DNA of 64,000 nt. Origin: a phage. The stretch is taken from the NCBI GenBank assembly GCA_012646185.1, contig GCA_012646185.1_4706.1. The stretch is one strand, 5' to 3'. Each line of letters opens with the position of its first letter. The first letter of the stretch is position 1. The translations under genes and the position numbers were made by a program. Of this stretch, positions 11,236 through 58,275 are shown piece after piece. The notes below the pieces were generated by a model. It was not told the DNA's origin. It ran no database searches and saw nothing but the letters and a program-made list of their open reading frames with translations.

Positions 11236-11251
11236 GTTATGACCGCTTTGA

Positions 11252-12920: not shown

Positions 12921-12924
12921 AATA

Positions 12925-24130: not shown

Positions 24131-24162
24131 CCTTCCTCCAACCCAACAGGGAAGGAGGAAGG
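24131..24162. terminator. GC-rich two-tier hairpin
   Basis: CCTTCCTCC-AA-CCC-AACA-GGG-AA-GGAGGAAGG between 22722..24023 and 24173..25462. Confidence 0.6.
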
Positions 24163-24172
24163 GATATAGTGG

Positions 24173-26788: not shown

Positions 26789-26836
26789 GTGTTGTCTCCA
26801 GTAATGATTCAAAAGATAAACCTGAGCGGCATAGAA

Positions 26837-26868
26837 CCCTCTCCCAACCCGTTAGGGAAGGGAGAGGG
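26837..26868. terminator. GC-rich two-tier hairpin
   Basis: CCCTCTCCC-AA-CCC-GTTA-GGG-AA-GGGAGAGGG between 25472..26788 and 26891..28213. Confidence 0.6.
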
Positions 26869-26890
26869 GATATGTCAGTTTATTAACTGA

Positions 26891-35090: not shown

Positions 35091-35111
35091 AACAAAATAG
35101 CATGAGCATAA

Positions 35112-35143
35112 CCCTCCTCCAACCCGTCAGGGAAGGAGGAGGG
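35112..35143. terminator. bidirectional hairpin between convergent genes
   Basis: CCCTCCTCC-AA-CCC-GTCA-GGG-AA-GGAGGAGGG. Confidence 0.65.
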
Positions 35144-35152
35144 AATATGCTG

Positions 35153-38100
35153 TTATCTTACGTTATTGCTGTTCTGCTGTTCGCTGAACCAACCGTACAC
35201 CTTGAGATCGGTACCGTATTTCAATGCGATATACGCATTCAGTGCGGCACAGAACAAAGACGCGAATGCCCATATCAGCGAAGGATCAACATCTTCCGTT
35301 ACCACCGGGAGAGTATTATCCGGTTCCCATGATGGAGAACTGTCCATGAACGTCGTGACCATTACTCGCCGTTGTTCTTCGGTGGTAAAGTCGCTATGAG
35401 GTTCCAACGCTTCTTTTGCCAGACGTCGATATTCGAACATATGCGTTGCTAAAGCCGATGAGTTACCAGATTCGCCTTCATAGTTCGGATCCACCGCATA
35501 ACAGAGTTCTGTTGAATCTAACAAAGCAACCGCCTGTGTGATGCTGTCGGCAGTGCCTGCACCATAGAGTTCGATAGACCGCGAAAGCTTCTCACAGAAC
35601 GCATCCAACGCGGCAGGATTGGACACCTGAAGGTCAAGGCCTAATGTCCACGGATAGTTACTGAATACACCCGTAAACCGCGGCATAACACCCAACAGAT
35701 GTTGTCCGATTACAGCACGGTTATAAACAGCCCGGTTATAGACTTGAAACGCAGCCTCCAAAGCTTGGTTATAATGACGACGAAGTTCGTCACGAGAGTT
35801 GCGGAACCTGTTTGCCGCAAGACTCGTGGCTGCGACGCTACAAACATCGTAATTGGTGGACGAGAGCACAGTTTCGTTAAGATCGAACGCTTCCTGTTTC
35901 AACGATCCGCTAACCGCTGCTGCTTCGCTGTTTGCTTTATCGACAACAGTACTCAAAGCGTTGATGTAACGTTTAGCTCGGACTTCCAGCCATTGTGCGA
36001 TGCCGAGAACATCCACAGCGGCTTTAGCAAGGTCACGCGCGTTCACGATTTCGTTCTTCAAGGCACCCAACCCTTTATTCTCAGGCGAAGAGGCTTGTTG
36101 ACGAATCATGCTGTTTAACATGGTAAGCAGATTATCCAACTCGTGCCCACTGACCTTGTTACGCGCATCGGTAATCGGCCCTTGCAGGAATTTACGGCAA
36201 CCATCGTTGTATCGAATCAGTTTATCCACATCGATAGATTCGTTCGTGGATTCCTTGAACTGATCCTTCAATTCTTCACGGTAGTCATGGATTTCACTTG
36301 CGAGATTATCGATAGTGATACCATCATGTCCAAGAAGAACTTTATTGAAGTTACCTTTCTCGAATGCCAGAGCAAGACCTTCACGAATCTTAGCGAGTTT
36401 ATCCTGATCAAGTTCACGACCGTTCGATAGCTCTTTCACTTCCGAGCTGATTAATGCCGAAACGTTACCCAGATTGTCGGTAACCCCTTTGAACGCTCCC
36501 GACCAGATCGTTCCTGCTTCAGCGTATTTCGCAATGGTCTGAATACCGACGGTGTGCAGCGACGCTAAACGTTTCTTCGTGCCTTCGGTAAGCAGAGCGT
36601 CTTTAGCTCGCGTAAGCTGGCTGTTATTAGCTTCCGCCTGCTGAATCGCTGCTTTCGCACTTCCATTACGCCAGCTCTTAACCAGCCAATCAACCAAACG
36701 TTTTAGGATGTTGACGGTATATTCCATCGTCCGCCGTAACGTTTCCCACGCGCTTTCTGCGGTATAGATGCCGTACCCTTCCATCTTCAACGCTTTCAAG
36801 CTTGTTTGACGTGCCAGCCATTCTACCGTTGCGGAACAAACGTTTACAAAGGCTTCCAGGTAGGTGTAATAGACGTCTGTTGCCGACGTTTCGTTGAACT
36901 TTGAATGCAGATAGAACTGATCGTAAAGTTCGTCGTCATCGCCGAAGGCATCATAGTTCCACAGTTCTGTATCACAACCTGTACCGCAGAAGACGTCAGC
37001 TGTCGTAAACTCTTTAAGCGCTTTAGCTGCATCATTCGTCAGGAATTTACCCGTTTCGACTACATCGTCGACATTAAGCTTGGGGAGTTCGTCGGTGACT
37101 GGCTCTTCCAACATCAGCATATTGAAGAATGTGCTGTACTTGTATCCGAGCCATTTTGGATAACTGCTTTCAGGGATCGTAGACAACGGCTTGATTTTCT
37201 TGGCTTCAGCCAATGTGTCTTTTGCGACCTGATATTGGTTTTCCCCAGCCTTGACGCGACGTAATGCTTTTTCTTCCAACTGCTTAAGCTTGGCATGGCG
37301 TGCTTGTGCTGGAGCTTCAACAAGTTTTTGTACTGACCGCATTGCAGAAATCGCTTCTTTTAATACGATCATCGGCATACGAACTTTGCCGTCGTCGAAA
37401 CTAAGAGCGCGAGCGACACGTTTACTTACGACAGGCTTATCATGGATATTTCGTTCCACCCATGATTTGTTTGCGTAAGTTTGAGCGATCTGCTGTTGGA
37501 TATTTTCAAGGTATTTCCAGCCGTTGGAAGCTTTGTTATCCAGAAGCGGATTCGGTCCCTTCTTATCGAAAAGTTTCAGAATCGGACCAAAGAAACCTTC
37601 CTGTACGAGTTCGATACGCGTGTATCCGTCAGCCGCTTCGATTTCTTCTTGGGTTTTGTCCCAGAGCTGTTCACTACGGACAGCAGTAGCTGTTTCAGAT
37701 ACCGACATAACAAGCTCGGCAACAACTTCAGCACAGGTCAGTACGGTACGCACGCATTGCACTAGCATACGCTGGTAAACGATACGTGCGTTTTGTAGAC
37801 GTGCGATAACCGCTAAATAACCGATATTGTCAAGACGTTCGTCGGCTTGAGCAGAGTCGACACGTTCTATCAGTTGTTTAACCAGCGCGGCTGTTTCCGG
37901 ATAATCGTTCACGACGTCACGCATAATTCGTGATGCGAAAACCGCGGTACCTAAAACGTTAAGAAGTGTTTTACCGTCCCATTCTTTTGGTGTCGCTACC
38001 GATTCGGTAGGGATGAGATTTCCCGCTTGATCGAAGTATGGCATAAGGACATTGATATCCGTAGACGGTACTGCGGTGATTGCGTTGTACTCTTCATCCG

Positions 38101-38758
38101 CACCATCGTTGCCAGACGGCTGTAATGCAAGTGCTTGTTCAAGGATTTTGCGGTCAACAGCATAAAGCGCCGACAGAGCCTGTGTTACCGCAACCAGATC
38201 AACGATCGGCGACCAGAGCTGTGCGAGCTTACCTTCGTATTTCTGTACAGCGATAGCAAGGTCTTCTTTTACGTCAGGATGATTGATTAAACCACCCAGC
38301 GCTTCATGGATTGCAGAAAAACGTTCAGAATGTGCTTGAGTTAATGCAACAAAATCGTCAACGTACGATGCATTTTCTTCAAGGCGTGCAAGTTCCTGCT
38401 CCAGAAGATCTTTTACTTGCGTGGCGGATGCGTTTCTCAGCTGTTCCCCGATAATCGCGATGGCTTTATCGACAACACGACAAGCTTCATTGAAGCCTGT
38501 CGTTGAAGGTAACTCGGTCCATAATGCCAGCGGCTTACCTTCCATTGCGTCAGGAAGGGAATATGACAACATTGCTAGTTGTTGACGTGATACCTGTTTG
38601 TCACGATGTAACGTTTCTTTCAACGCCAGAAGCTCATCAAGACCCACACTGCTAGGGATCGTGGGATGTGATACGGCGTTGATATTTTCTGTCAATGACT
38701 CAAGAACCAATAAACCATTTTCAGCGGAAGATAACCCTGCTTTAAGGTATTTGTTCAT
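35153..38758 (-). CDS. very large helical protein (1201 aa) sharing ELVQEGF motif with 38840..41632
   Basis: Long ORF; ACGGAG 7 nt upstream; internal RIELVQEGFFGPILKLF; hydrophobic C-terminal segment LIWAFASLFCAALNAYIALKY; a tape-measure role is not excluded. Confidence 0.8.
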   Translation of the reverse strand: MNKYLKAGLSSAENGLLVLESLTENINAVSHPTIPSSVGLDELLALKETLHRDKQVSRQQLAMLSYSLPDAMEGKPLALWTELPSTTGFNEACRVVDKAIAIIGEQLRNASATQVKDLLEQELARLEENASYVDDFVALTQAHSERFSAIHEALGGLINHPDVKEDLAIAVQKYEGKLAQLWSPIVDLVAVTQALSALYAVDRKILEQALALQPSGNDGADEEYNAITAVPSTDINVLMPYFDQAGNLIPTESVATPKEWDGKTLLNVLGTAVFASRIMRDVVNDYPETAALVKQLIERVDSAQADERLDNIGYLAVIARLQNARIVYQRMLVQCVRTVLTCAEVVAELVMSVSETATAVRSEQLWDKTQEEIEAADGYTRIELVQEGFFGPILKLFDKKGPNPLLDNKASNGWKYLENIQQQIAQTYANKSWVERNIHDKPVVSKRVARALSFDDGKVRMPMIVLKEAISAMRSVQKLVEAPAQARHAKLKQLEEKALRRVKAGENQYQVAKDTLAEAKKIKPLSTIPESSYPKWLGYKYSTFFNMLMLEEPVTDELPKLNVDDVVETGKFLTNDAAKALKEFTTADVFCGTGCDTELWNYDAFGDDDELYDQFYLHSKFNETSATDVYYTYLEAFVNVCSATVEWLARQTSLKALKMEGYGIYTAESAWETLRRTMEYTVNILKRLVDWLVKSWRNGSAKAAIQQAEANNSQLTRAKDALLTEGTKKRLASLHTVGIQTIAKYAEAGTIWSGAFKGVTDNLGNVSALISSEVKELSNGRELDQDKLAKIREGLALAFEKGNFNKVLLGHDGITIDNLASEIHDYREELKDQFKESTNESIDVDKLIRYNDGCRKFLQGPITDARNKVSGHELDNLLTMLNSMIRQQASSPENKGLGALKNEIVNARDLAKAAVDVLGIAQWLEVRAKRYINALSTVVDKANSEAAAVSGSLKQEAFDLNETVLSSTNYDVCSVAATSLAANRFRNSRDELRRHYNQALEAAFQVYNRAVYNRAVIGQHLLGVMPRFTGVFSNYPWTLGLDLQVSNPAALDAFCEKLSRSIELYGAGTADSITQAVALLDSTELCYAVDPNYEGESGNSSALATHMFEYRRLAKEALEPHSDFTTEEQRRVMVTTFMDSSPSWEPDNTLPVVTEDVDPSLIWAFASLFCAALNAYIALKYGTDLKVYGWFSEQQNSNNVR

Positions 38759-43634: not shown

Positions 43635-45134
43635 ATGAGCGAACAAGAACGAAAACCTAAGAAGAAACTGCTCGGTATTCAATGTCGACACATCAGCTAT
43701 AACGAAGCGAACGACGGCAGCAAGAACGACCTCATGATCGCAAAAGAGATCATGTTCTTTGATGACAATACGCAAGCGACGAACCTTCGCTTCTTTGAGA
43801 ATTACAAACGTCCGTTTTGGGTGACGGTAGAGAGTAAACGTAAGAACAAATATAAAAAGGAAAGCGAGAAGCTCTCGCATGTGCGTCGCTATGATGTCCG
43901 CCAAAGTGAACTGGTTGAAAAGATCAGTTCGGTGCTTTATAAAAGACGTGCTGACGATAACACCCGTTTACAGCAGCTTGCACGGAGTCCATACCTCTAC
44001 GGCACGGACGTTAGCGCCAGCTGTTATTTAAAAACCCAGTACAACACAAAATGGCCGGAATACGTCGATAAATTACCCGCTTCCATTGCCTGTTTCGATA
44101 TCGAAACCGACGTTGTCCATGGACATGGTAAGATCGTTTGTATGTCTATTACAATGGGATACAATGCGATACTTTGCTATACCAAGGACTTCGTTGGTCA
44201 TATTCCGAATGCGATTGAGAAAACCCATGAGAAGATTCGATATTACCTGGCCGAACGTCTGAATACCAAAGAAGATCCTCATGCGTTCGAAAAATATCAG
44301 TACGATGTGCGAATCGTAGAAAGTCCGGCACAAGCAGTCATCCAATGCATGCAGAAGGTTCACGAATGGCAGCCGGATTATCTCCTTGGCTGGAATATCG
44401 CGTTCGATATTCCGCGCATGCTCCAGGCACTGAACGAGGAAGGGTATCGTCCCGAGGATGTTTTCTCCGATCCTCGTGTACCCCCTAAGTATCGTATTGC
44501 TCGCTGGGTACCACCGAAGACCGACAAGGTATCTGCTTCAGGCCGTAAAACCAACCTTACCCTCGAGCAGACCTGGCCGATGTTTTATACGATGGCTACG
44601 TATCAGGTTATGGATGCGATGTGTGGTTATAAGTTCGTTCGTTTAGGAAGACCGGATGAGGGACGCTATTCACTCGATGCGGTGTTAGAGCGTAATAAAT
44701 GCCATACGAAATTAAAAGCGATTCCTGGTACAGAAGGGTTCACGGAGCTCGCCTGGCACGAAGAGATGCAAACGAACCATCAAATCGACTACGGCGTATA
44801 TAACCTTTGGGATAACCAAGGTATTGAGGCGTTGGACCAGAAAACAAAAGACTATTCGATGACCATCCCGATTCGTTTAGCGGCGTCGGATTTGAAAGAT
44901 TTCAGTTCCAACCCTAAACGTATCTGCGATAAACTTTTCTTCGTGTATCTTAACCGTGGGGAAGTCATGGGATGCACCGCCGACGACATGACCCAGGAAG
45001 AAGATAAGTGGGTTATCTCACGAACCGGACATATCGTCACATTACCATGCGATCTCATGGCGGACAACGGCATTCATCTCTTCTGGGATATGCCTAATTT
45101 AAGGAGCTATATTCGATTATTTGTTGCGGATTAA
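43635..45134 (+). CDS. DEDDy 3'-5' exonuclease domain protein, family B DNA polymerase N-terminal-like
   Basis: Exo I ACFDIETD, Exo II LLGWNIAFDIPRML, Exo III GRYSLDAV in canonical order and spacing; no polymerase palm motifs seen downstream. Confidence 0.65.
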   Translation: MSEQERKPKKKLLGIQCRHISYNEANDGSKNDLMIAKEIMFFDDNTQATNLRFFENYKRPFWVTVESKRKNKYKKESEKLSHVRRYDVRQSELVEKISSVLYKRRADDNTRLQQLARSPYLYGTDVSASCYLKTQYNTKWPEYVDKLPASIACFDIETDVVHGHGKIVCMSITMGYNAILCYTKDFVGHIPNAIEKTHEKIRYYLAERLNTKEDPHAFEKYQYDVRIVESPAQAVIQCMQKVHEWQPDYLLGWNIAFDIPRMLQALNEEGYRPEDVFSDPRVPPKYRIARWVPPKTDKVSASGRKTNLTLEQTWPMFYTMATYQVMDAMCGYKFVRLGRPDEGRYSLDAVLERNKCHTKLKAIPGTEGFTELAWHEEMQTNHQIDYGVYNLWDNQGIEALDQKTKDYSMTIPIRLAASDLKDFSSNPKRICDKLFFVYLNRGEVMGCTADDMTQEEDKWVISRTGHIVTLPCDLMADNGIHLFWDMPNLRSYIRLFVAD

Positions 45135-45165
45135 CCTTCGTTCTGTAAAAACTTACCGATATATA

Positions 45166-45211
45166 GAAATTACTGTGAGATACCAAAGGTACTCGTAAGT
45201 TTAGTAATTTC
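45166..45211 (+). other. hairpin (9-bp stem GAAATTACT/AGTAATTTC, 28-nt loop) between exonuclease gene and HNH gene
   Basis: Read directly from sequence; could be a terminator or part of an intron 5' structure. Confidence 0.4.
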
Positions 45212-45227
45212 TGAGCGGTAGGTAAAT

Positions 45228-46364
45228 ATGTTGGAACATCTTGAACATTTAGACAATGAATACTTAAATTTCACCAATCGTCGTTATCGTATCTTCGAAG
45301 ACGGTACACTTTACGATTACAAAGAGAATTGTAAAGTACCTGTTATAATAGAAGATAACAACTCTTACGTTATTATCGATTGGTATCGTGGGGTTGGTAA
45401 ATACGAATTGGGGATGATCATGCTTACAGCATTTGATCGCATCCACATTCCTAACTATCTTTACGATGAAATTGAATCGTTGTTTATTGATAACGACCCG
45501 ACGAACTTTTCGTATAGTAACCACATCTATCGTTTCCGTAATGGACCGCTGGCTGTGGAAGGGTATCCGGGATATTACTACATCCCGTTTGCCACGTACT
45601 ATGCGCTAAATGAACAAGGTGAATGTTTAAGTCTTTTGTCTGGGGAAGGTATAACGTGGACAATGACGCAGCAAAACGGTACGCGGCGTCCCGGCTATCG
45701 ATACAGAAAGGTAACACCTGATAGCGGTTTTACGGCTCAGCTGTATCGTCATCGAGCGATGATGTTGACGTTTCGTCGTTACGACGCAAGCGTTGTGGAA
45801 ATGACCGTTAATCACAAGAACGGTATTAAAGGCGATGATTGGCTGGATAACCTGGAATGGGCAACCTACAAGGAAAACAACAATCATGCGCGTATAAACG
45901 GTTTATGTGACGGCAAAGCGAAACCTATCAAGATCTTTGATTATAATCGTCATACCGAACGTCATTTCAAGAGCATCGCTGAGGCGGAACGTGCGTATCC
46001 ACACGTAGCAAAAGGACGTTTCAAATGGTGGGTTGAAAATCCACCGAAACGTATACCTGAATGTAACCTCTACATCAAACATGCGTTCGATAATACTCCG
46101 TGGCCTGAATGGAAACTGGGTGATGAACGACGTATTGAAGATGTAGCGGGTATTCCGATTATCGCCCTTAACATGGTTACAGGCGAGAAACGAGTGTATT
46201 CATCGGTTACAGCTGCGGGTAAGGATACGAAAACAAGTTGGATAACAGTACGACGTCACTGTGATAAGCGTGTCGTTCCTGTTAAACAAGCATGGTGTTT
46301 CCGTTATGCTGACGACGTCAAAAACATGCCTGAGTTAACTTCCCTACCAACAATCGAACAGTAA
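45228..46364 (+). CDS. HNH homing endonuclease
   Basis: HNH signature TVNHKNGIKGDDWLDNLEWATYKENNNHA; C-terminal repeated DNA-binding-like modules (SIAEAERAYPHVAKGRFKWW, SVTAAGKDTKTSWITVRR); gene visibly more AT-rich than its surroundings. Confidence 0.85.
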   Translation: MLEHLEHLDNEYLNFTNRRYRIFEDGTLYDYKENCKVPVIIEDNNSYVIIDWYRGVGKYELGMIMLTAFDRIHIPNYLYDEIESLFIDNDPTNFSYSNHIYRFRNGPLAVEGYPGYYYIPFATYYALNEQGECLSLLSGEGITWTMTQQNGTRRPGYRYRKVTPDSGFTAQLYRHRAMMLTFRRYDASVVEMTVNHKNGIKGDDWLDNLEWATYKENNNHARINGLCDGKAKPIKIFDYNRHTERHFKSIAEAERAYPHVAKGRFKWWVENPPKRIPECNLYIKHAFDNTPWPEWKLGDERRIEDVAGIPIIALNMVTGEKRVYSSVTAAGKDTKTSWITVRRHCDKRVVPVKQAWCFRYADDVKNMPELTSLPTIEQ

Positions 46365-46875
46365 CGATAACAGGTCCCCCTACTTGTAATGAGTGGGTGA
46401 ACTCTCTTTAATTGCTGGAAACCTTTAATGCCCCTCCACACCACAACGCAATCCGAAAGGGTAAACGTGATGGTTGTCGAAAGACAGAAAAAAGTTGGAG
46501 GGGATTACCTAAGCTGAAATAAAAGCCGTTACTTTCTGGATATGGAAAGAGTCTAACGGTGCTAAGGGTCCTGCTAGAAATAAGGTAACCGTAGCAGCGA
46601 AGACCCTACGGACTGTCGTGACCGACTCGATGAGTTGGCGTGGTTAACACGGACAGGCTACGGGTAACGTTCAACGACCATCCGGTTGCGCGGAGTAGGA
46701 GAATTAGGATGTTCTCCGAAAAGGGAGAAGTCGGTCGAGGTGTTGTAGAAACACCGTTGCTTTGCTTCGCAAACATAAGACAGGCTAAGATATGGTCTAT
46801 ATTAAATGTAATACTATGATGTATAGAATTTAATGGCTCGATATTAGCAGTTCATATCCAAATGGGCAGATCCTG
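46365..46875 (+). ncRNA. structured non-coding region with group I intron catalytic-core-like elements
   Basis: About 510 nt without a credible ORF; R-like GTTCAACGACCA (46669..46680) and S-like AAGATATGGTC (46788..46798) with complementary GACCAT/ATGGTC halves (P7-like); several local hairpins and a long-range CCCCTCCA/TGGAGGGG complement. Confidence 0.35.
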
Positions 46876-47091
46876 TTGAATCTATCCAGAGCATGTGTTT
46901 TTCGTGAGCTCTCACGCATTGAGGGCGTCTCTGACTACCAATTCAGGAAGCTAGGTATCAACTTTATTACCGGAGGTAAAACGAACGCTGTAGACTTCTG
47001 TAGAATCGTTTATAAAGCACCATCGATGTTTGAGCTCTTAGAACATTTCGATGCGACGCGTCCAAAAGAGGAAGCGCGGACCATCGAATGA
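46876..47091 (+). CDS. doubtful small ORF (71 aa, TTG start); possible 3' exon or spurious
   Basis: Frame open from 46834; no SD; no recognisable motif. Confidence 0.2.
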   Translation: MNLSRACVFRELSRIEGVSDYQFRKLGINFITGGKTNAVDFCRIVYKAPSMFELLEHFDATRPKEEARTIE

Positions 47092-47141: not shown

Positions 47142-47169
47142 CCTCCCCCTGGCGGAAGCCGGAGGGAGG
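47142..47169. terminator. hairpin with GGAA tetraloop
   Basis: CCTCCCCCTGGC-GGAA-GCCGGAGGGAGG, 11 of 12 pairs; downstream of 47178..47663. Confidence 0.6.
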
Positions 47170-47177
47170 GGTGAGGT

Positions 47178-47663
47178 TTATGCGCGTTCGTTACCAACCG
47201 TTACTTTGTAGTCAGCGTCGGTTAAGAATATAGACAGGAATCCATGTTCTTTGCAAATCTGACTAAGGATGTCAGCAATGATTTCGTTGATCATCGGCTT
47301 GTTTGCAAGGGCATAGATGTACCCGGGTGTAAAAGAAAGTGCGTGATTGATCATAGGCTCATGAGAAGCCAAGATAAGGATCACGTGATGCTTCCCATCG
47401 TCGGTAACGACCGCTTGCGTAGACACGAAGAAATCAGTGAAGCAGCAGCGATCACAGGCTTTAGGTATATACAAGTCACCCAGAGCTTCGTTACGTGCTT
47501 TTACGTGTGTTTCAGGGGTGATGCTGCTAAGTTGATCTTCAGCGAGATCCAAGACATCCTCAATCGTTTTAAGAATAGCGTTGCGGAAATCCTCACGGTA
47601 GAATGGGATGATATCACGATCGTTCATGTAATCGCCGGATTCGATAGTAAAGTTGATGTTCAT
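47178..47663 (-). CDS. small hypothetical protein (161 aa), accessory island
   Basis: ORF with AGGAG 6 nt upstream. Confidence 0.7.
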   Translation of the reverse strand: MNINFTIESGDYMNDRDIIPFYREDFRNAILKTIEDVLDLAEDQLSSITPETHVKARNEALGDLYIPKACDRCCFTDFFVSTQAVVTDDGKHHVILILASHEPMINHALSFTPGYIYALANKPMINEIIADILSQICKEHGFLSIFLTDADYKVTVGNERA

Positions 47664-47773
47664 TGAATGCTCCTAGTGGTTATGTCGATTGATTGATGTA
47701 TTGATTTATGTTTGATGGGGTATACTTGAAACTACAAATAAGGCTCTTGGCGTTGCTGTTATGGTTCAGTTCT

Positions 47774-48226
47774 TTATCCCTTGTTGGATTCGTCAATATA
47801 CTTGGTGTCGTAAGACAAATGCTGAATTAATTTTCTAGGTCTGATGAATATACGACATGTGATAAACACATCAGGATTGTATTGTTCCACGCAACGTCCG
47901 AAGGCTCGTTTTGCGGCGTGACGCATCAACACTAATTCCCGATCGTTCATCTCATCATCAAATTCGATGTGTATCGTGATTTTATCGGGAAATAAATAGA
48001 TAGAGTAATCGCCACCAATACCGCCGTCGTCAAAACGATAATCGTTGTGGTAATGGTGAAGTTTACCTTCGTGTATCGTCTGGTACCACCCGACGTTACT
48101 ATCAAGGCCCATACCCAGGCGTCCGAATGCCTGATTAATAATATCTTCGACGACGGATGCGGGTGTGGGGCCATTGAACAATCTATCCAGACGTTTTTTC
48201 ATCGATTTGTCGTTTTTCATGTTCAT
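47774..48226 (-). CDS. small hypothetical protein (150 aa), accessory island
   Basis: ORF between hairpin 48255..48290 and the 47664..47773 spacer. Confidence 0.65.
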   Translation of the reverse strand: MNMKNDKSMKKRLDRLFNGPTPASVVEDIINQAFGRLGMGLDSNVGWYQTIHEGKLHHYHNDYRFDDGGIGGDYSIYLFPDKITIHIEFDDEMNDRELVLMRHAAKRAFGRCVEQYNPDVFITCRIFIRPRKLIQHLSYDTKYIDESNKG

Positions 48227-48254
48227 TGTTTCTTTTCCTGTGTAGTCGGTATAC

Positions 48255-48290
48255 AGCCCTTCCCCGGCCTTGGTGGCTAGGGAAGGGGCT
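48255..48290. terminator. GC-rich hairpin
   Basis: AGCCCTTCCCC...GGGAAGGGGCT. Confidence 0.5.
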
Positions 48291-48301
48291 ATGCTACGTT
48301 G

Positions 48302-48700
48302 TTATGCTTCGCAATCAGCTGAAGGCGTCGCGCCTTTCTTACCGGCGATACGCCAAATCCGACACGCTGGGTAATGGTTAACCTCTAGAGAGCAAGGAAT
48401 GTTATATTTCTCTTCCAGCGCATAAAGACATTTCGTTAGCTGCTCCAGCGCGTTCTCGTCGTGTCGTAACGCGTGGTGGCCTAATCGATGTTGGTCGTTC
48501 TTTATATACGCCTCGAAGAGAACATGTTGGCGATGTACGCTGACGTTTACAGCCTCGAGTATAGCTTGGTCGAGCATACGACTAAAGCACATCAACGAGT
48601 CAGATACGTTTTCTCGCTTAACCAGATCGATCATGGCGGGAATATACGAATGGTCGATGTTATCGATGACCGCTTTAGCGACGGAATCAGCAACGTTCAT
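48302..48700 (-). CDS. small hypothetical protein (132 aa), tandem paralog of 48736..49131
   Basis: Shared blocks VKAV.DNIDH...MID..K.E, EKYNIP.SLEVN..PA with its neighbour. Confidence 0.7.
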   Translation of the reverse strand: MNVADSVAKAVIDNIDHSYIPAMIDLVKRENVSDSLMCFSRMLDQAILEAVNVSVHRQHVLFEAYIKNDQHRLGHHALRHDENALEQLTKCLYALEEKYNIPCSLEVNHYPACRIWRIAGKKGATPSADCEA

Positions 48701-48735
48701 CTTTTAATCCCTAGTTTGTTATTGATCACGTATAT

Positions 48736-49131
48736 TTACTCTTTGACGTCAGTTGTCGTTTCGACATGCTTCTCACTACTGACGTACCAGAGCAGGTACG
48801 CTGGGAAAAGATTGACCTCTAAGCTAAATGGGATATTGTATTTCTCTTCCATTTTACAGAGATGTTCTTTAAGTAAATTTCTCGCGTCTCTGTCACCACG
48901 AACAGAGTGCCAGTCTAGTTCTTTGTTCTCCTTTACCAGGACCTCTACGATGATACGTTGCTCGTGAACCTCGGTTTTCACAGTGAAAAGTAAATCGCTG
49001 CTATCAAAACGGGTAAAACGAATGTATGAACCAGGTGTTTTTTCTTGTTTAATAATATCGATCATGGTAGAAATGCGCGGATGATCGATGTTGTCGTTAA
49101 CAGCTTTAACGATGGATTCTACAATGCTCAT
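48736..49131 (-). CDS. small hypothetical protein (131 aa), tandem paralog of 48302..48700
   Basis: See paralog; ATGA overlap with the upstream micro-ORF. Confidence 0.7.
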   Translation of the reverse strand: MSIVESIVKAVNDNIDHPRISTMIDIIKQEKTPGSYIRFTRFDSSDLLFTVKTEVHEQRIIVEVLVKENKELDWHSVRGDRDARNLLKEHLCKMEEKYNIPFSLEVNLFPAYLLWYVSSEKHVETTTDVKE

Positions 49132-49226
49132 TTTTTATCCTTAATGTTATCGATATTGACGAGTTCATCAATACGGCACTGTTGGTTGAATTCGATTAAT
49201 CGTTGAACTTTATCTTTGATAGACAT
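49128..49226 (-). CDS. candidate micro-ORF (32 aa, MSIKDKVQRLIEFNQQCRIDELVNIDNIKDKK)
   Basis: Not in the ORF track (below 60 aa); starts 2 nt after the stop of 49229..49687 and ends in an ATGA overlap with 48736..49131. Confidence 0.3.
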   Translation of the reverse strand: MSIKDKVQRLIEFNQQCRIDELVNIDNIKDKK

Positions 49227-49228
49227 GA

Positions 49229-49687
49229 TTACCCATTAGCTCCTTCTTCGTCTGGAGAGTACTCCATTGTGTAGAATTCATAACCATCGGAAAACTTGAG
49301 TGTTAATGTAATAGGGAAATCGCACGGCGTAGCTGATTTCGTAAATGCGTTATTAGCAACATCTGCCAACCGACGTATAGCATCAGTCCCGCTGACGCTG
49401 AATGGTAGTTGTATGTTGATAAGGATACGATGCTTGTAAACATAGAAAACAACGGTACTGTCAAGATAGACGCTATGGAACGGTATTGTTGGGATGCGTT
49501 CCACGATGGTAAAATACGTCCCGTCATTATCGCTATGTCCCACCGACCAAATATCGGATTTGCGTAGATTTTGTTTGAGAGATTCGATGCTTCGAGTGAC
49601 GGTATCAGCAACAGGCGTGACGTAAGCGTCTTTATGCGAGTCGAAAAGTTCGTTGACGTTAGATTCGAATGAAAACGTTGTTGCCAT
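49229..49687 (-). CDS. small hypothetical protein (152 aa), paralog of 49753..50253
   Basis: C-terminal similarity ITLTLKFSDGYEFYTMEYSPDEE versus VILTINGHDGSGLFEFHYDPDNE. Confidence 0.7.
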   Translation of the reverse strand: MATTFSFESNVNELFDSHKDAYVTPVADTVTRSIESLKQNLRKSDIWSVGHSDNDGTYFTIVERIPTIPFHSVYLDSTVVFYVYKHRILINIQLPFSVSGTDAIRRLADVANNAFTKSATPCDFPITLTLKFSDGYEFYTMEYSPDEEGANG

Positions 49688-49752
49688 TTTCTACCTCAAT
49701 GGTTTAACCGATACGTGCCCCACCTAACAAGGGACACGTTATCGTTGATTAA

Positions 49753-50253
49753 TTACTCTTCTGTGTTTTCATTGTCGGGATCGTAGTGGAATTCGAACAG
49801 CCCTGAACCGTCGTGCCCGTTGATTGTTAGTATAACGGGCATATCGAATCCTCGGACACGCGAATGAAAACACTGTGCTAATTTGAGTTTGGCGTATGCC
49901 GCTATTTCATTGACAGCAATACACGATTCACCTGTTATACTCAGTATAACGTCGATACTAACAATGTTGTCGTGCAACGCAAAACGCCAGCGATCGATAC
50001 GATTATTATCTTTATCGGTTGTCTCGTTTACGAGATAGACTTTATCGTCAACCGACAAAGCGGGACTCCAGCAACGATCGTTTATTAAATTCGCCTGGAG
50101 TTTTAGTATCGTCTGATCGATAATATCCCAACACGTAACCAGCGTGGTGTCAGGCACTGAGTAGAGAAGGGCGTGCACTTTATCCTTTATTTTAAGTGCT
50201 TCCGCAGGACGTCCGCAAATACCATGCATTTCAACTTTCTTATTCATATTCAC
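49753..50253 (-). CDS. small hypothetical protein (166 aa), paralog of 49229..49687
   Basis: See paralog. Confidence 0.7.
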   Translation of the reverse strand: MNMNKKVEMHGICGRPAEALKIKDKVHALLYSVPDTTLVTCWDIIDQTILKLQANLINDRCWSPALSVDDKVYLVNETTDKDNNRIDRWRFALHDNIVSIDVILSITGESCIAVNEIAAYAKLKLAQCFHSRVRGFDMPVILTINGHDGSGLFEFHYDPDNENTEE

Positions 50254-50290
50254 TTCTTTCTTAATCTAAATGTTAGTTGGGGTGGAATGC

Positions 50291-50923
50291 TTACATGCTT
50301 TCTAACATATCGATGATCATGGAACCCATACCGAAACTCGGTCTTTCACCGATGTACTCAGCAAGCTGGCGATGGACGTCTTTTGGATTTCCTTCTTCAC
50401 CATCGGCATCGATGTAGACCGAAAAAGAAAATGAATCGGAATCCACGCTGATAACCAGACGACGTTCATTGCGTTCCTTGAGCGTGTCGACGATAGCTGC
50501 TTTCAGTACTGCGATCGCGTTCATCGCGTGCAAGATATCTCCATCGGGTTTCGGCAGATCGATCTTTTCTTTCAGGTCGATATTGATGTTGGTTACAATT
50601 GGGTTGAGGTCGACCTTGACGTAATCGTTAGGGTACATGCGAATAATCGCACGATCGATATCTGAACCGTAAAAGTCAACACGTGGCTTTAACACTTCTT
50701 TGTTTGGATCCATGTTTTCATCCATACCCGCCTGCAAGAAACGTTCTACGTTATCCAGTTCACGATAAACTGACGCTTCGATTTCTTTCAGATAGTTGGC
50801 TGCGGTTTCATGTTCTTTACGCAGCTCGTCTTTAAGGAGCTGTACGGTGACTTCACTGGAACGAATGCTGTTCGCGAATTGGGTAATTGACATATCGAAT
50901 TCCTTAAATTCTCTTGAGTTCAA
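50291..50923 (-). CDS. hypothetical protein (210 aa)
   Basis: ORF; no motif. Confidence 0.7.
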   Translation of the reverse strand: MNSREFKEFDMSITQFANSIRSSEVTVQLLKDELRKEHETAANYLKEIEASVYRELDNVERFLQAGMDENMDPNKEVLKPRVDFYGSDIDRAIIRMYPNDYVKVDLNPIVTNINIDLKEKIDLPKPDGDILHAMNAIAVLKAAIVDTLKERNERRLVISVDSDSFSFSVYIDADGEEGNPKDVHRQLAEYIGERPSFGMGSMIIDMLESM

Positions 50924-50991
50924 TTAATGATGAAAAGCTGTAAAAAAAGGTGGGGCGAACCCCACCAAAACGTCAGACACACGCAGGAAAA

Positions 50992-51417
50992 TTAATTCAG
51001 TGACGCATATAACGCATAACGACTGTAGATCTCAACCGCCGGTCCGTTATGCGTTAACAGACCATCCCGGTTGTAATACTGGAAAAATGAATAACGTTTG
51101 TCGAAGTGATAAACAAAAGCAATGTCTTTGCTGCCAAGACCTGTGATGCGTGGTCTGTTTTTATCTAACAGCGCTTTGACTTTTAACAGTGTTGCCGCAC
51201 GTGCTTTAACGTTAGGGATTAATCCATCACAATCGATATAAACTGTGTAACCTGTTTCAGATGTTGCGACGGTCGTATTGCGATTGACGCGGAAGATTTT
51301 TGTTTCGTATGTACTATCTTCAAGAATTGGGTTTTGTTTTTCGTATTTTCGTTTACGCAGAAATTCTACAACGGTGATATAGTTAGCGGTAATATGCCCG
51401 GTTATAGCTTGTAACAT
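50992..51417 (-). CDS. hypothetical protein (141 aa)
   Basis: ORF preceded by conserved element copy C. Confidence 0.7.
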   Translation of the reverse strand: MLQAITGHITANYITVVEFLRKRKYEKQNPILEDSTYETKIFRVNRNTTVATSETGYTVYIDCDGLIPNVKARAATLLKVKALLDKNRPRITGLGSKDIAFVYHFDKRYSFFQYYNRDGLLTHNGPAVEIYSRYALYASLN

Positions 51418-51484
51418 CTTGACATCCTTTTATATTGGATTGGTTGCAATTGTCTTAAATAGATGATAAGATATTTTGCTCTTA

Positions 51485-51545
51485 TCACTAAGGTAATGTA
51501 GTCGTGAAATAAACTGCGTTAACACGAAATAAAAACAGCATAGAA
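51485..51545 (-). promoter_or_regulatory. conserved intergenic element, copy C (promoter or 5' leader candidate)
   Basis: TCACTAAGGTAATGTAGTCGTGAAATAAACTG...ACAGCATAGAA; a 1-nt indel relative to copy A breaks any shared reading frame. Confidence 0.45.
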
Positions 51546-51585
51546 CCCTCCTCCCACATCCTTCAAGAGGACGGTGGGAAGAGGG
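51546..51585. terminator. long GC-rich hairpin
   Basis: CCCTCCTCCCAC...GTGGGAAGAGGG, 11 of 12 pairs, plus an inner stem. Confidence 0.55.
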
Positions 51586-51590
51586 AGAGA

Positions 51591-51992
51591 TTAAATGTCG
51601 TGGACGGCAATGCCGTTTAACCAGCAATACAGCTTAACGCGACAGGAATACCGCTTCGTTGCGGCAACCATTTCATCGCGTAAACGCTGGTAGATTTCAT
51701 CCTGGTGTTCACGATCAATGGGGTAATCAGCCCAACATTCGATCATGACGTCACCATTCGTCAGAATCGTCGTACGCATCCTGTCCTGGATACGGCGGTC
51801 TTTCCCGGCATTAGGGAAATACATTCCTTCAGTACGAATAAGGTCGCCGCAGGGCATGACTAACCATTCGTTCGTTTTGCCGGTATTCTTATAATCCATT
51901 ACGGCTTGCATTGCGGTGTCAACGCTAAAAGAAACATAATTCCAAACGGATGTCCAACGATAGATTGCGGGTTGTTCGAGTGTTTCGTTCAT
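51591..51992 (-). CDS. hypothetical protein (133 aa)
   Basis: ORF. Confidence 0.7.
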   Translation of the reverse strand: MNETLEQPAIYRWTSVWNYVSFSVDTAMQAVMDYKNTGKTNEWLVMPCGDLIRTEGMYFPNAGKDRRIQDRMRTTILTNGDVMIECWADYPIDREHQDEIYQRLRDEMVAATKRYSCRVKLYCWLNGIAVHDI

Positions 51993-52046
51993 GGAGTGCT
52001 TGTCCTATTTTTATTTTCTGCACAGGATAAATTCAACGGCATAAAG

Positions 52047-52076
52047 CCCTTCCCTGCCCTTATATGGGGCGGGAAG
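52047..52076. terminator. hairpin
   Basis: CCTTCCC...GGGAAG with inner GCCC/GGGC. Confidence 0.45.
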
Positions 52077-52206
52077 AGTTTATGACCGCAATGAGAATCT
52101 CTCACGACAAGCTCACGACGATTATCGCATCACCCCGCGAGTGAGGGAGATCAGGATCACCTCCTACGTCGTAACGACAGTAATCCCGTTAACGTCGCTT
52201 TAGACG

Positions 52207-52833
52207 TTATGCAAAGCGACGCATGTAACCTGCCAGATAGTTACGCGTATCGAAGTAAGCAATTTCAGGAATTGCGATATTAAGGTCGATAGCACGGATT
52301 TCAACTTGGCGACGGCTTTCATCATAGATCGCATCCATCAGACGCAGTACTGTCAGGAAAGCCATGCGGGTATGGTAGTCCAGCGGCATGTTATCGATAC
52401 CGCGATACAGATAACGGTTTGCGTTAAATGCCCCTTCGCTGTTATCTTTCCAGATCTTCAGAATATCAGCAAAGGCGGCGCGGAAAACTTCAGGATTATC
52501 CACATCCAGTAACGCACGGAAAGCAGACATTAAAGACCGCTGATGACGGATCAACGACTGCGGCGTTTGCGGCATGGTCGGACCCATTTCTTCCGCATAT
52601 TTCTGGAACGGAGCAACCAGGGTTGCGGCACGAGAAGCCACGATAGAAACAGCAGGCGATTCTTTCACCGCCGGTTTCGCAGGCTTTTCTTCAACAACGG
52701 TTTCCTTCTTCTCAACAGCGACCGTTTCCGGCTGTGCTACAACATCACCAACCGGAGCATCTGCAACGGTGGTTTCTACCGCAGTAATCTCCTCGTCCAT
52801 TTTTGCAGAACGTTGGTCTTTATTCTTGCTCAT
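52207..52833 (-). CDS. hypothetical protein (208 aa) with Ala/Val/Glu/Pro-rich N-terminus
   Basis: AAGGA 8 nt upstream. Confidence 0.7.
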   Translation of the reverse strand: MSKNKDQRSAKMDEEITAVETTVADAPVGDVVAQPETVAVEKKETVVEEKPAKPAVKESPAVSIVASRAATLVAPFQKYAEEMGPTMPQTPQSLIRHQRSLMSAFRALLDVDNPEVFRAAFADILKIWKDNSEGAFNANRYLYRGIDNMPLDYHTRMAFLTVLRLMDAIYDESRRQVEIRAIDLNIAIPEIAYFDTRNYLAGYMRRFA

Positions 52834-57700: not shown

Positions 57701-58210
57701 ATGGCGAGATTTACCAGTTTGATTGGGTTGGATATTTGGGAAACACCGGCTGACGTTCGGGTTATTCCTGTCAACACCGTCGGTGTGATGGGACGTGGTC
57801 TTGCCAAACAGGCAGCTGATCGTGTGCCCGGTCTTCTTGAAGCGTACCGTAAGCAATGTCAAGATGGGTTTAAGGTGGGCGAAGTCGTATCGTATCAGCA
57901 AGGCGAGAACGATCAGCTCACTTACGTGTTGTTTCCATCAAAATCGGATTGGCGTGAAAGAACACGACGCGAGTATATCGTTAACGGTTTACTGGCGTTA
58001 AAAGCATGGTTACTGGAGCTTCAGTTCGAAAGAGACGGCTTCTCATACCACCGTCCGGCTGAACCGCTGATCGTTGCAATTCCTCCGGTCGGTTCTGGTT
58101 GCGGTAATATCGGTTACGGACAATCCGAAACAATCCAGCCTCAATGGGTACGCACACAAATCAAACAGTATCTTGCCACCGTACCAAACGTTCATTTCTA
58201 CTTGTTCTAA
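57701..58210 (+). CDS. macrodomain (ADP-ribose-processing) protein
   Basis: Motifs VIPVNTVGVMGRGLAKQAA and IVAIPPVGSGCGNIGYG fit the macro fold signature; start at ATG 57701 directly after the upstream stop. Confidence 0.55.
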   Translation: MARFTSLIGLDIWETPADVRVIPVNTVGVMGRGLAKQAADRVPGLLEAYRKQCQDGFKVGEVVSYQQGENDQLTYVLFPSKSDWRERTRREYIVNGLLALKAWLLELQFERDGFSYHRPAEPLIVAIPPVGSGCGNIGYGQSETIQPQWVRTQIKQYLATVPNVHFYLF

Positions 58211-58226
58211 TGCAAAGGTAACATAA

Positions 58227-58258
58227 CCCTCCTCCAACCCGTAAGGGAAGGAGGAGGG
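58227..58258. terminator. bidirectional hairpin between convergent gene blocks
   Basis: CCCTCCTCC-AA-CCC-GTAA-GGG-AA-GGAGGAGGG, identical to the 11204 copy. Confidence 0.65.
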
Positions 58259-58275
58259 CTTATGCTGTTATGCTA

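Follow-up and report, generated by a model that had tools for sequence, protein, structure and literature searches.

The interval 47178-52833 of the window (the whole 64,000-nt stretch of phage DNA analysed here) is a composite, comprising two late genes followed by one early operon. Sequence comparison places the window in a Goslar-like nucleus-forming jumbo phage, with 94% identity to Goslar (NC_048170) and conserved synteny. The balance tips slightly towards 47178-51509 being a single early operon of this phage that carries an accessory, host-directed array of paralogs. An earlier note on this DNA had described the interval as an accessory island of ten minus-strand genes and a 32-aa micro-ORF. 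All these reading frames were found, while the boundaries of the island could not be upheld: g52207 and g51591 are late genes, kept in all 13 Goslar-like genomes compared and lying outside the early module. The early part, 47178-51417, corresponds to Goslar gp075-gp070. The features of the interval are listed below in the order of transcription.

52207-52833, minus strand: g52207, ortholog of the Goslar capsid decoration protein gp77; late, not in the early array
52036-52089, minus strand: stable hairpin after g52207 (-31.4 kcal/mol, z -5.8, 0/200 shuffles), its stem continuing into CATA...TATG flanks
51591-51992, minus strand: g51591, ortholog of Goslar gp076; late, function unassigned
51536-51585, minus strand: polypyrimidine/polypurine hairpin (51546-51585) with TTCTATGCTG (-29.1 kcal/mol, 0/200 shuffles)
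51485-51509, minus strand: 25-nt box TTTCACGACTACATTACCTTAGTGA, putative early promoter of the operon, for the virion RNA polymerase
50992-51417, minus strand: ortholog of Goslar gp075, first gene of the operon; basic (pI 9.5), in 13/13 genomes
50942-50966, minus strand: GC-rich hairpin with a T7 run, inside the operon, resembling an intrinsic terminator
50291-50893, minus strand: g50291, ortholog of Goslar gp074, 200 aa from ATG 50893; acidic, in 13/13 genomes
49753-50253, minus strand: g49753, family A, slot e, ortholog of Goslar gp073
49709-49744, minus strand: hairpin at the slot f junction (-20.2 kcal/mol)
49229-49687, minus strand: g49229, family A, slot g, ortholog of Goslar gp072; the family A protein modelled
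49128-49226, minus strand: 32-aa ORF, 5' remnant of a slot h family A-type gene (143-255 aa in relatives)
48736-49131, minus strand: g48736, family B, slot i, absent from Goslar
48302-48700, minus strand: g48302, family B, slot j, absent from Goslar
48249-48297, minus strand: hairpin at the edge of the 930-bp segment missing in Goslar (-28.1 kcal/mol; indel boundary at 48310)
47774-48226, minus strand: g47774, divergent family A (subfamily F1), slot k, ortholog of Goslar gp071, found by HMM match
47680-47740, minus strand: non-coding 3' remnant (...FKYTPSNIN) of a family A gene (compare ORF 47680-47796 with the C-terminus of L003:16149-16595)
47178-47663, minus strand: g47178, ortholog of Goslar gp070, last gene of the operon; absent from two genomes (L010, L011)
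47142-47169, minus strand: hairpin followed by a T-rich run (-21.5 kcal/mol)

Late genes and the early operon

g52207 is 94% identical over its full length to Goslar gp77 (PDB 11fg), the few small differences lying in its low-complexity N-terminal part (a 4-residue indel). It matches PDB entry 11fg_A, 'Capsid Decorator gp77' (E 7e-126), and PHROG 18957 (E 9.5e-19), and occupies the same genomic position as its Goslar counterpart, beside the gene for the non-virion RNA polymerase beta subunit. In Goslar, gp77 was identified as a capsid decorator by cryoEM and virion mass spectrometry (MS) (bioRxiv 10.64898/2026.04.21.720040). The product of g51591 is 97.7% identical to Goslar gp076, found by MS at ~2.6 copies per virion. 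In a ChmA knockdown the log2FC is -3.6 to -4.7 for Goslar gp077 and -4.5 to -6.1 for gp076 (bioRxiv 10.1101/2023.09.20.558163). Both genes belong to the late, nucleus-dependent class, and the host-takeover or anti-defence reading of the earlier note does not apply to them. Its remark that no product has a recognisable motif agrees with searches of Pfam, NCBIfam and PADLOC, in which the island proteins had no match, and fails for g52207, given the solved structure of gp77. Invariance among relatives together with virion products, which the note had set against its own proposal, was found for g52207 and g51591; the central array is hypervariable.

The operon starts at the 25-nt box and runs to a hairpin that it has in common with the convergent DNA polymerase gene (47142-47169, between the ends of g47178 and of polymerase exon 2, the latter at 47091). 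The gp075 and gp074 orthologs come first, followed by the array of A and B paralogs, with the gp070 ortholog closing the unit. In Goslar, gp070-075 are classed as early, and gp048-069 and gp076-093 as late (Supplementary Table 2 of bioRxiv 10.1101/2023.09.20.558163). According to the ChmA-knockdown RNA-seq of the same study, transcription of gp070-075 is ChmA-independent (log2FC +1.0 to +1.2 for gp075, about +1.06 to +1.09 for gp074, and about +1.0 to +1.2 for gp070), and ChmA-independent transcripts constitute the first-stage programme, executed by the injected virion RNA polymerase in the early-infection vesicle. MS detected peptides of gp070-075, evidence of their translation in Goslar. Both data sets, RNA-seq and MS, come from Goslar and not from the window's phage; for the family B genes, which have no Goslar ortholog, it is their position inside the operon that suggests early expression. 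As a separate observation, gp070, at about 166 copies per purified virion (MS, not validated), could be a packaged protein and not a cytoplasmic effector. Two gene starts probably need correction, judging by the lengths of homologs: g50291, for which the ORF list gives TTG 50923, should begin at ATG 50893 (giving 200 aa, in agreement with Goslar gp074 and with the genes called in relatives), and g49753 at ATG 50247 (164 aa, the length of database homologs).

The conserved 60-nt element mentioned in the earlier note is real. It consists of a hairpin, TTCTATGCYG, and the ACATTACCT-box at 51485-51585, and recurs at 6347-6416 and 12822-12926. Its hairpin (51546-51585) belongs to a family repeated across the window (repeat families D1-D3; three composite copies aligned), and the structure at 51536-51585 likely terminates the late unit. 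The 25-nt box occurs three times in the window, each time at a late-to-early gene boundary, and within Goslar 1-92 kb its five copies each lie ahead of one of the five ChmA-independent clusters; all nine loci tested (the window and eight relatives) have one copy before their gp075 homolog. It is by this association that the box is proposed as a putative early promoter, a conserved motif upstream of early operons being the rule in jumbo phages encoding their own RNAP (PMC7598289). Six stable hairpins were confirmed, ranging from -14 to -31 kcal/mol in free energy; none of 200 shuffled sequences folded as well for five of them, and 11 of 200 did for the sixth. Nevertheless, the genes are not individually terminated, as had been claimed: there are six hairpins per ten genes and a single promoter box, and the early genes form one operon. 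The counterpart of the hairpin at 50942-50966 is annotated as a terminator in Goslar, where the read density per nucleotide is similar on either side of it.

The paralog superfamily

The paralogy of the two tandem pairs pointed out in the earlier note was borne out, g48302 and g48736 sharing 38.8% identity over 129 aa (E 7e-30), and g49229 and g49753 22.9% over 153 aa (E 2.5e-6, from a very small database). The latter two are bridged by an intermediate paralog from L004 (29% identity, E 1e-14), and in BFVD the model of g49229 has Goslar gp073 as a match (Foldseek E 3.8e-11). Paralogy extends beyond these pairs, with g49229, g49753, and g47774 all homologous by profile comparison (hhalign of family A with F1: probability 95.5%, E 1.6e-8, 121 columns). 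The models of family A (g49229, pLDDT 86) and family B (g48736, AF2, pLDDT 84, pTM 0.79) have the same order of secondary-structure elements, and in BFVD the g48736 model significantly matches a single protein, Goslar gp073 of family A (E 2.8e-6). The predicted structures of A and B superimpose with TM 0.40-0.48, and a comparison of the A2 and A6 profiles, a weak match (E 0.0016), aligned equivalent elements. On these predicted structures and the weak profile match, the g48302/g48736 pair would share the family A fold. The array is old, with 15-39% identity among its paralogs. Nor are the two pairs recent duplications: at 23-39% identity they are old array members, present or absent at fixed slots.

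The array products, three A-type and two B-type in the window, are small soluble alpha/beta proteins with GRAVY below 0, in which no membrane or secretion signal was found. A single column of the family A alignment, a leucine, is invariant and a few others are nearly so; no catalytic-type polar motif emerged. The A and B models had no good match to any solved structure and no informative structural match. An exhaustive family search of 1.84e9 protein representatives gave 14 matches: the eight inspected were Goslar-type proteins or fragments, three more were known family members, and three were long proteins aligning only over short repeated stretches. A search of 5.8e9 proteins gave 193 and 32 clusters, and among the matches listed those with a named source were Escherichia, Salmonella or Shigella records, or Goslar itself. 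Judging by these searches, the superfamily appears confined to Goslar-like phages and absent from other chimalliviruses.

Variation among relatives and deletion scars

The proposal that this is a hypervariable accessory locus is supported by the relatives, eleven gene arrangements being found among the thirteen Goslar-like genomes, every genome carrying 3-7 copies of type A and 0-2 of type B. Whole cassettes are present or absent, and the order is strictly collinear between genomes, a pattern suggestive of differential loss. None of the 13 genomes lacks slot e, g, or k; at least four slots known in relatives are missing from the window, among them an extra family A cassette of about 470 bp in slot f (window junction 49697/49703, corresponding to L014 8518-8990). 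The locus is one of only two indel regions in the 56 kb compared with Goslar, which lacks a 930-bp segment with the B genes; the other early clusters of the window are 96-99% identical to Goslar. Such a gene content, differing in almost every relative, marks a dispensable module.

Three deletion scars are visible, two of them in the window. The 32-aa ORF matches, with its first 27 aa, the start of a 143-aa gene (L003:15415-15846, 92.6% identity), and its stop codon overlaps the g48736 start (ATGA). It is the scar of a lost paralog, left by a deletion of about 700 bp in slot h at a short microhomology (junction mapped against L014 9537-10240). As to the 47680-47740 remnant, a matching intact family A gene stands before gp070 in relatives. 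The third scar is in Goslar, which keeps the 3' end of a slot j (g48302-type) gene. The dN/dS of the locus genes is 0.10-0.39, versus 0.01-0.02 for polymerases, so that the array genes are under purifying but relaxed selection; a gene-wide dN/dS below 1 gives no direct arms-race signature. The array content showed no obvious correlation with host genus, few genomes having a named host.

Possible roles and known systems

The array is probably a dispensable accessory module directed at the host, as its early timing and variability fit the profile expected of host-takeover or counter-defence genes. A more specific proposal, put forward tentatively and at slightly less than even odds, is that the paralogs are binding proteins synthesised in the cytoplasm of the host while the phage nucleus has yet to form. 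They would differ in the host component acted on, e.g., a defence sensor or a takeover target, and the repertoire would therefore be tuned to the strains met by each phage. A non-enzymatic nature is suggested by the single invariant leucine and the lack of a catalytic-type polar motif. No homology to known anti-defence, takeover or toxin families was found in PHROG, Pfam, NCBIfam, or PADLOC. In PhiKZ, about half of the genes are small, non-essential, and clustered in suspected anti-defence regions (PMC12676376).

It is unlikely that the small proteins are instead phage-internal early factors, serving the vesicle, nucleus assembly or the early-to-late switch. Their expression coincides with that of chmA, picA, and other genes of the first stage, and essential early proteins of novel fold do occur in chimalliviruses, e.g., JADA (PMC12931631). 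However, in nature A and B paralogs can each be dispensed with, and the family is missing from all other chimalliviruses, though the vesicle and nucleus cycle is common to them; this role stays plausible for gp075 and gp074 only, whose average conservation is 94-96%. Quite unlikely is a structural module encoding virion-associated or injected proteins, to which the capsid decorator g52207, the MS level of gp070 and the ~8 copies of gp074 would point. Against it, gp071, gp072, gp073, gp075, and gp076 are at trace levels (about 0.4-4 copies per virion), structural genes belong to the late class and gp070-075 to the early one, gp070 is dispensed with in two genomes, and gp070-076 are not mentioned in the main text of the virion-structure paper (bioRxiv 10.64898/2026.04.21.720040). 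PhuZ, listed beside gp070 in Table S4, has a similar level (about 171 copies), so that, provided PhuZ is no part of the virion, abundant intracellular proteins may have been carried over.

A role in competition between phages (superinfection exclusion or anti-satellite activity) is improbable, although early expression and strain-level variability would suit it equally well. Many exclusion proteins are membrane proteins, while those of the array are soluble. Goslar-like phages are found in carrier-like states in many isolates, where superinfection is plausible (PMC12768965). That the array is a relic of an old expansion, decaying almost neutrally and without present function, is very improbable. 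Variation mainly through loss, the scars, and a dN/dS 10-20 times that of core enzymes speak for it; nevertheless, the retained copies are intact in frame in 13 genomes at dN/dS 0.2-0.4, well below 1, the array is transcribed and translated in Goslar, three slots are never lost, and the models are confidently folded.

Returning to the host-directed module, its operon resembles the first-stage clusters of chimalliviruses in its small, function-unassigned genes, the orthologs gp070-075 being in that class in Goslar (bioRxiv 10.1101/2023.09.20.558163), and the early operons of RNAP-encoding jumbo phages in its conserved upstream box (PMC7598289). It differs from other first-stage clusters in that its Goslar counterpart is an isolated six-gene early block within about 45 late genes, and from the window's other early clusters in that its gene content varies between near-identical genomes. 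The PF12699 inner-body paralogs (Goslar gp53-58, PhiKZ gp92-97) are likewise tandem, structurally similar, encoded in one operon and in part individually dispensable; they are, however, late, high-copy, packaged, injected, and family-wide, whereas members of the A/B superfamily are expressed early, occur in virions in trace amounts, and are found in Goslar-like phages only. Smaller phages carry anti-defence islands, but the array proteins have no sequence or structural relationship to Tad1 or any known anti-defence protein. T4-type phages reportedly have hyperplastic regions of mobile cassettes flanked by promoters and stem-loops. These too are arrays of small early ORFans between core modules, with cassettes present or absent in close relatives, and hairpins also lie at some junctions here (49709-49744, 48249-48297). 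Unlike them, the array has one promoter in all, not one per cassette, its members are paralogs of one fold and not unrelated ORFans, and it is strictly collinear, one junction being an illegitimate deletion within a coding sequence. With the non-essential regions of PhiKZ (PMC12676376), where dispensability was read from mutagenesis and not, as here, from natural variants, the array shares small, dispensable, clustered genes with suspected roles towards the host or its defences in a nucleus-forming phage.

Gene content of the locus and its flanks

The ten small minus-strand ORFs and the 32-aa ORF which an earlier note had placed at window 47178-52833 were all found there. The segment 47000-53000 is 94% identical over 84% of its length to Escherichia phage vB_EcoM_Goslar (NC_048170), a chimallivirus, i.e., a nucleus-forming jumbo phage, and matches no other GenBank phage. 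Goslar was also the sole match of g52207 (genes are designated by their lower coordinates) in a tblastn search of GenBank phages, while megablast of complete E. coli genomes and of plasmids found no close relative of the locus. The Goslar counterparts are gp077-gp070 (g52207, g51591, g50992, g50291, g49753, g49229, g47774, and g47178, in this order), flanked by the DNA polymerase/HNH region (gp068-069) and the gene for the non-virion RNA polymerase beta subunit (gp078). The likely true start of g50291 is ATG 50893 (200 aa, the length of its Goslar and database homologs), and that of g49753 is ATG 50247 (164 aa, as in database homologs). The island proteins are all soluble, with pI values of 4.6-6.7 except for gp075 (9.5). 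No tRNA genes were found in 45-53.5 kb, and the only Rfam match was a group I intron, which splits the adjacent DNA polymerase gene (window 43635-47091, plus strand) as follows:

43635-45131, plus strand: DNA polymerase exon 1, residues 1-502 of the 586-aa protein of a related locus (L007), 98% identity
~45132-46836, plus strand: intron, containing an HNH/NUMOD1 endonuclease ORF (45228-46364)
46837-47091, plus strand: DNA polymerase exon 2, residues 503-586 of the L007 protein, 93% identity

In L007 the 586-aa polymerase is uninterrupted and the endonuclease ORF is lacking; among relatives this ORF is 368, 378 or 396 aa long. The Intron_gpI match (46326-46817, E 2.3e-8) reaches 42.5 bits, short of the gathering score (50). 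The junction FVAD/LDISSSYPNG lies in what we take to be the polymerase B motif A region. In the Goslar annotation there are only a 499-aa 'DNA polymerase' and a 'NUMOD1 domain protein', and the intron is unannotated. On the other flank, a few kb upstream of the RNA polymerase beta gene, some relatives carry a 169-aa gene with a weak Pfam match:

L010 1014-1523, L014 1-446, L015 1-453, L016 1-455, minus strand: 169-aa gene with a weak Macro-domain match

The first two genes of the island, g52207 and g51591, are late genes, since their Goslar orthologs belong to the class dependent on ChmA, the nuclear shell protein. g52207 matches PDB 11fg_A, 'Capsid Decorator gp77' (E 7e-126). The role of gp77 as a capsid decorator is already known: it sits on the capsid exterior, between two protomers of the major capsid protein (bioRxiv 10.64898/2026.04.21.720040), with 60 copies modelled and ~430 estimated. 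The virion paper follows RefSeq numbering: with gp022 as YP_009820707, gp077 corresponds to YP_009820762, which is filed under HOV27_gp077. The exact sequence of residues 66-212 of Goslar gp77 is also found in chain 7 of PDB 36za (60 chains, 147 aa), labelled 'Inner-peripheral baseplate spoke gp220', which may be a labelling discrepancy. Four of 13 relatives have an extra gene of 151-163 aa, F8, between gp076 and the hairpin/promoter, a position that assigns it to the late unit. Neither the window nor Goslar has F8, for which no kinship with the A and B families of the array was seen.

L003 12597-13052, L004 12555-13046, L013 5125-5580, L015 6595-7050: F8

The early block and its putative promoter

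The transcript classes come from Goslar RNA-seq, ChmA knock-down versus control (Supplementary Table 2 of bioRxiv 10.1101/2023.09.20.558163). The log2FC of gp070-gp075 is +1.0 to +1.3, while that of gp048-gp069 and gp076-gp093 is about -2.5 to -8, mostly -3 to -6, with the immediate neighbours, gp069 and gp076-078, at -3.6 to -6.1. The authors of that study ascribe the unchanged class to a first-stage programme of the injected virion RNA polymerase in the early-infection vesicle, and the reduced class to a nucleus-dependent second stage (bioRxiv 10.1101/2023.09.20.558163). Six Goslar orthologs, those of g50992 to g47178, keep their level without ChmA, as expected of first-stage genes, which are expressed from 5 min post infection, and form an isolated early block within a long run of late genes; the expression and proteomics data are all from Goslar, in which the two B genes (g48302 and g48736) have no ortholog.

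In Goslar, reads per nucleotide are spread almost evenly over gp075 through gp070, so the internal hairpins, including a T-run terminator at 50942-50966, do not strongly partition the operon. The former view that the genes are individually terminated is not supported, as there are six hairpins for ten genes and a single putative promoter box. A sigma-70 promoter scan gave 9 sites, fewer than the 16.9 in shuffled sequence, which fits transcription independent of the host RNA polymerase.

The 'conserved 60-nt element' and the hairpins that were said to punctuate the island are both real. The element occurs at 51485-51585, 12822-12926, and 6347-6416 and is composite, comprising, on the minus strand, a hairpin, TTCTATGCYG, ca. 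28 nt, and ATTTCRCGACTACATTACCTWGGTGA; its hairpin part alone is found at five or six further sites. The hairpins number six, with folding energies of -14 to -31 kcal/mol; for five, none of 200 shuffles did as well. The three copies of the ACATTACCT box in the window lie exactly at the late-to-early boundaries gp041/gp040, gp048/gp047, and gp076/gp075.

Window 6347-6371, 12829-12853, 51485-51509, minus strand: 25-nt box TTTCACGACTACATTACCTWGGTGA
Goslar 2552, 15052, 43251, 49717, 86690, coding strand: 25-nt box TTTCACGACTACATTACCTWGGTGA

In Goslar (positions 1-92,218 searched, up to 6 mismatches in 25 nt), there are five copies, each directly upstream of one of the five ChmA-independent clusters of this stretch: gp004-001, gp021-014, gp040-037, gp047-044, and gp075-070. 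The window and eight relatives (9/9 loci tested) have exactly one box per 9-21 kb searched, ca. 40-120 nt upstream of the gp075 homolog. Such placement is in line with the rule, in jumbo phages encoding RNA polymerases, that early operons are preceded by a conserved motif (PMC7598289). The 25-nt box is probably, by association, the virion RNA polymerase (early) promoter of Goslar-like phages. Since two of the five Goslar boxes lack the hairpin and TATG, this part is a separable module, probably the terminator of the upstream late unit.

Polypyrimidine/polypurine hairpins (CCCTCC...GGAGGG) are also dispersed over the window, and their CATA...TATG flanks extend the stem into TATG on either strand:

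11187-11240, 12872-12925, 24114-24167, 26820-26873, 35095-35148, 58210-58263, 51536-51585, 52036-52089, 48249-48297: polypyrimidine/polypurine hairpins

In PhiKZ, late promoters and start sites have TATG as their motif (PMC4666361); the hairpins may be terminators alone, or terminators combined with late promoters or processing sites.

Variability of the array and its protein superfamily

The locus was recovered from 12 further Goslar-like genomes (IMG/VR, ENA metagenomes, Escherichia/Salmonella assemblies), and its genes were assigned to slots, i.e., subfamilies at 50% identity. In every genome the order of slots is a(gp077) b(gp076) (r) c(gp075) d(gp074) (p) e (f) g (h) (q) (i) (j) k (l) (m/n/s) (o = gp070), brackets denoting slots present in some genomes and absent in others. 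The 13 genomes display eleven arrangements, with 3-7 A-type and 0-2 B copies per genome, which bears out the supposition that the locus is hypervariable; the array of the window is e g i j k o. This presence/absence polymorphism lies between conserved syntenic flanks, the RNA polymerase beta subunit and DNA polymerase being 99% identical. Set against L014-type genomes, the window is missing slot f (junction 49697/49703, beside a hairpin) and the body of slot h (junction 49151-49154, at a short microhomology). Three deletion scars are visible. One is the 32-aa ORF, which is present as reported earlier and is a slot-h remnant, its first 27 residues matching the start of a 143-aa gene of L003. 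The second lies near the end of the array:

47680-47740: non-coding remnant, 3' end (...FKYTPSNIN) of a slot m/n/s gene

The third is in Goslar, where 930 bp with h', i, and j are missing and the last few nucleotides of a B gene are kept. The collinear order and the scars indicate that the variation arose largely by differential loss from a larger ancestral array. It is local: in a 56-kb comparison with Goslar, only the array locus and part of one large virion gene did not align, and the other two early clusters of the window are 96-99% identical to those of Goslar. The second non-aligning segment (36788-38460) is located inside the ORF 35153-38758 (minus strand), which codes for 1201 aa in the window and 930 aa in Goslar (gp064), suggesting a large late gene with a replaced or inserted domain; gp064 is reduced in the ChmA knock-down, i.e., late.

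Both tandem pairs proposed in the earlier note are paralogous: g48302 and g48736 (family B) share 38.8% identity over 129 aa (E 7e-30), and g49229 and g49753 (family A) 22.9% over 153 aa (E 2.5e-6, in a small database). The latter pair is also backed by an intermediate paralog in one relative, and the model of g49229 matches the Goslar ortholog of g49753 in Foldseek (E 3.8e-11, TM 0.68). The remote-homology searches and structure prediction which that note had recommended yielded a wider family and models for A and B. An HMM built from clear g49229/g49753 relatives also matches g47774, and profile-profile comparison of family A with the g47774 subfamily, F1, gave a probability of 95.5% (E 1.6e-8, 121 columns); judged by these profiles, A and F1 form one superfamily. 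The family A model (pLDDT 86, pTM 0.78) begins with two helices at the N terminus, continues with a four-stranded meander and a long helix, and ends in a beta hairpin; its only BFVD match in Foldseek was Goslar gp073. The family B model (pLDDT 84, pTM 0.79) has the same order of elements with one strand fewer, both being H-H-beta sheet-H-beta-beta. Its single significant BFVD match was again gp073, a family A protein (E 2.8e-6, probability 1.0, TM 0.40-0.48); Goslar has no B gene. Comparison of A and B with richer profiles aligned equivalent secondary-structure elements (E 0.0016, probability 15.8%, not significant alone). Going by the predicted models, A and B probably belong to one superfamily. 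hhalign gave no support (probabilities ≤3.6%) to gp070, gp074, gp075, gp076, and F8 as family A members.

An exhaustive HMM search of 1.84 billion representatives gave 14 matches, 11 of them Goslar-type small proteins or fragments and three long proteins aligned only in short repeated stretches. Family A has one invariant column, L41, and the near-invariant K8, L14, W47, I90, A111, and E152; the lack of a catalytic-type polar motif points to binding modules rather than enzymes. The statement that none of the ten proteins has a recognisable motif holds for nine, for which Pfam, PHROGs, PADLOC, and NCBIfam scans gave only noise (SLFN_GTPase-like E 0.16, SIR2 E 0.023 with 12 bits, glucokinase E 0.086); it fails for g52207, the capsid decorator, with the only non-noise family-library match (PHROG 18957). 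In these four libraries no significant HMM match to known defence, anti-defence or takeover families was found, nor was there a significant structural match, and neither PDB profile searches with gp070, gp074, and family A nor a single-sequence search with gp076 gave anything below E 0.2. A PD-(D/E)XK nuclease fold, considered because of weak Cas4/UL24/AddAB/RecC matches, was rejected: scores were low, no structural match was significant, and no catalytic D...(D/E)xK motif is conserved.

Candidate roles of the array

The locus is a first-stage operon with one putative promoter box, two front genes present in every genome, and gp070 as the closing gene, and its core is a collinear, loss-prone array of what is probably one private fold. 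It is quite possible, if somewhat short of an even chance, that the paralogs are cytoplasmic, pre-nucleus binding proteins directed against variable host factors, either takeover targets or immune sensors. The rates of protein evolution were computed between the window and relatives.

dN/dS of the array and neighbouring genes
DNA polymerase: 0.01
RNA polymerase beta: 0.02
gp074-gp077: 0.10-0.14
gp070: 0.17
A, F1, and B genes: 0.20-0.39

The three families and gp070 evolve faster than the core genes, with no gene-wide dN/dS above 1, so the genes are functional, under relaxed or diversifying selection. That the array is a decaying relic is the least probable reading, and its use in phage-phage competition is scarcely more so. 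Early roles internal to the phage, which would concern mainly gp074 and gp075, are quite unlikely. Slightly less probable again is that the products are virion or injected proteins, an explanation that applies essentially to gp070, present at ~166 copies per purified Goslar virion. Peptides of gp070-gp076 do occur in virion preparations analysed by MS, but those of gp071-076 amount to traces (~0.4-8 copies per virion), and PhuZ has a listed level similar to that of gp070, so that gp070 may be either packaged or a contaminant. The earlier note would have taken a syntenic, invariant locus with products identified as virion components as a refutation of its reading; among the ten genes such identification holds for g52207 alone, the ortholog of a protein built into the virion. 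Goslar gp070, the ortholog of window 47178-47663 (minus strand), combines the early RNA class with this copy number; the gene is missing in L010 and L011.

Nucleus-forming jumbo phages are of therapeutic interest, as their protein shell hides DNA from most defences. The pre-nucleus vesicle stage is their exposed moment, at which Avs5 and Juk strike, and such systems are only now emerging. To return to binding proteins aimed at the host, it is a rather unlikely but definite possibility that A and B are undescribed early effectors of Goslar-like phages, with up to nine paralogs, each neutralising or hijacking a different host factor, and a repertoire that would set the Escherichia/Salmonella/Shigella host range. 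If so, the targets could be, for example, immune sensors attacking the early-infection vesicle stage, the one phase in which these phages lack the nucleus shield. The locus is a compact collection of early proteins, variable in nature and probably sharing a private fold; its lineage is known from ~237 genomes, found in isolates of Escherichia, Salmonella, and Shigella of clinical and veterinary origin. It is a natural experiment in which array content can be set against the host defence repertoire, and single cassettes can be assayed for counter-defence or takeover. Annotation gains the early-promoter box (assigned by association), corrected boundaries of early and late units, the recognition of the micro-ORF as a scar, and the group I intron. 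No description of the superfamily or its confinement to Goslar-like phages, of the slot map or of the promoter box assignment was found in the Goslar papers examined.

Core modules separated by a hypervariable stretch of small, early, accessory genes are a familiar arrangement. In PhiKZ, about half of the genes are small, non-essential, and clustered in regions suspected to be anti-defence loci (PMC12676376). This likeness, which is not a test of array function, supports by analogy placing the island among loci of that general kind.
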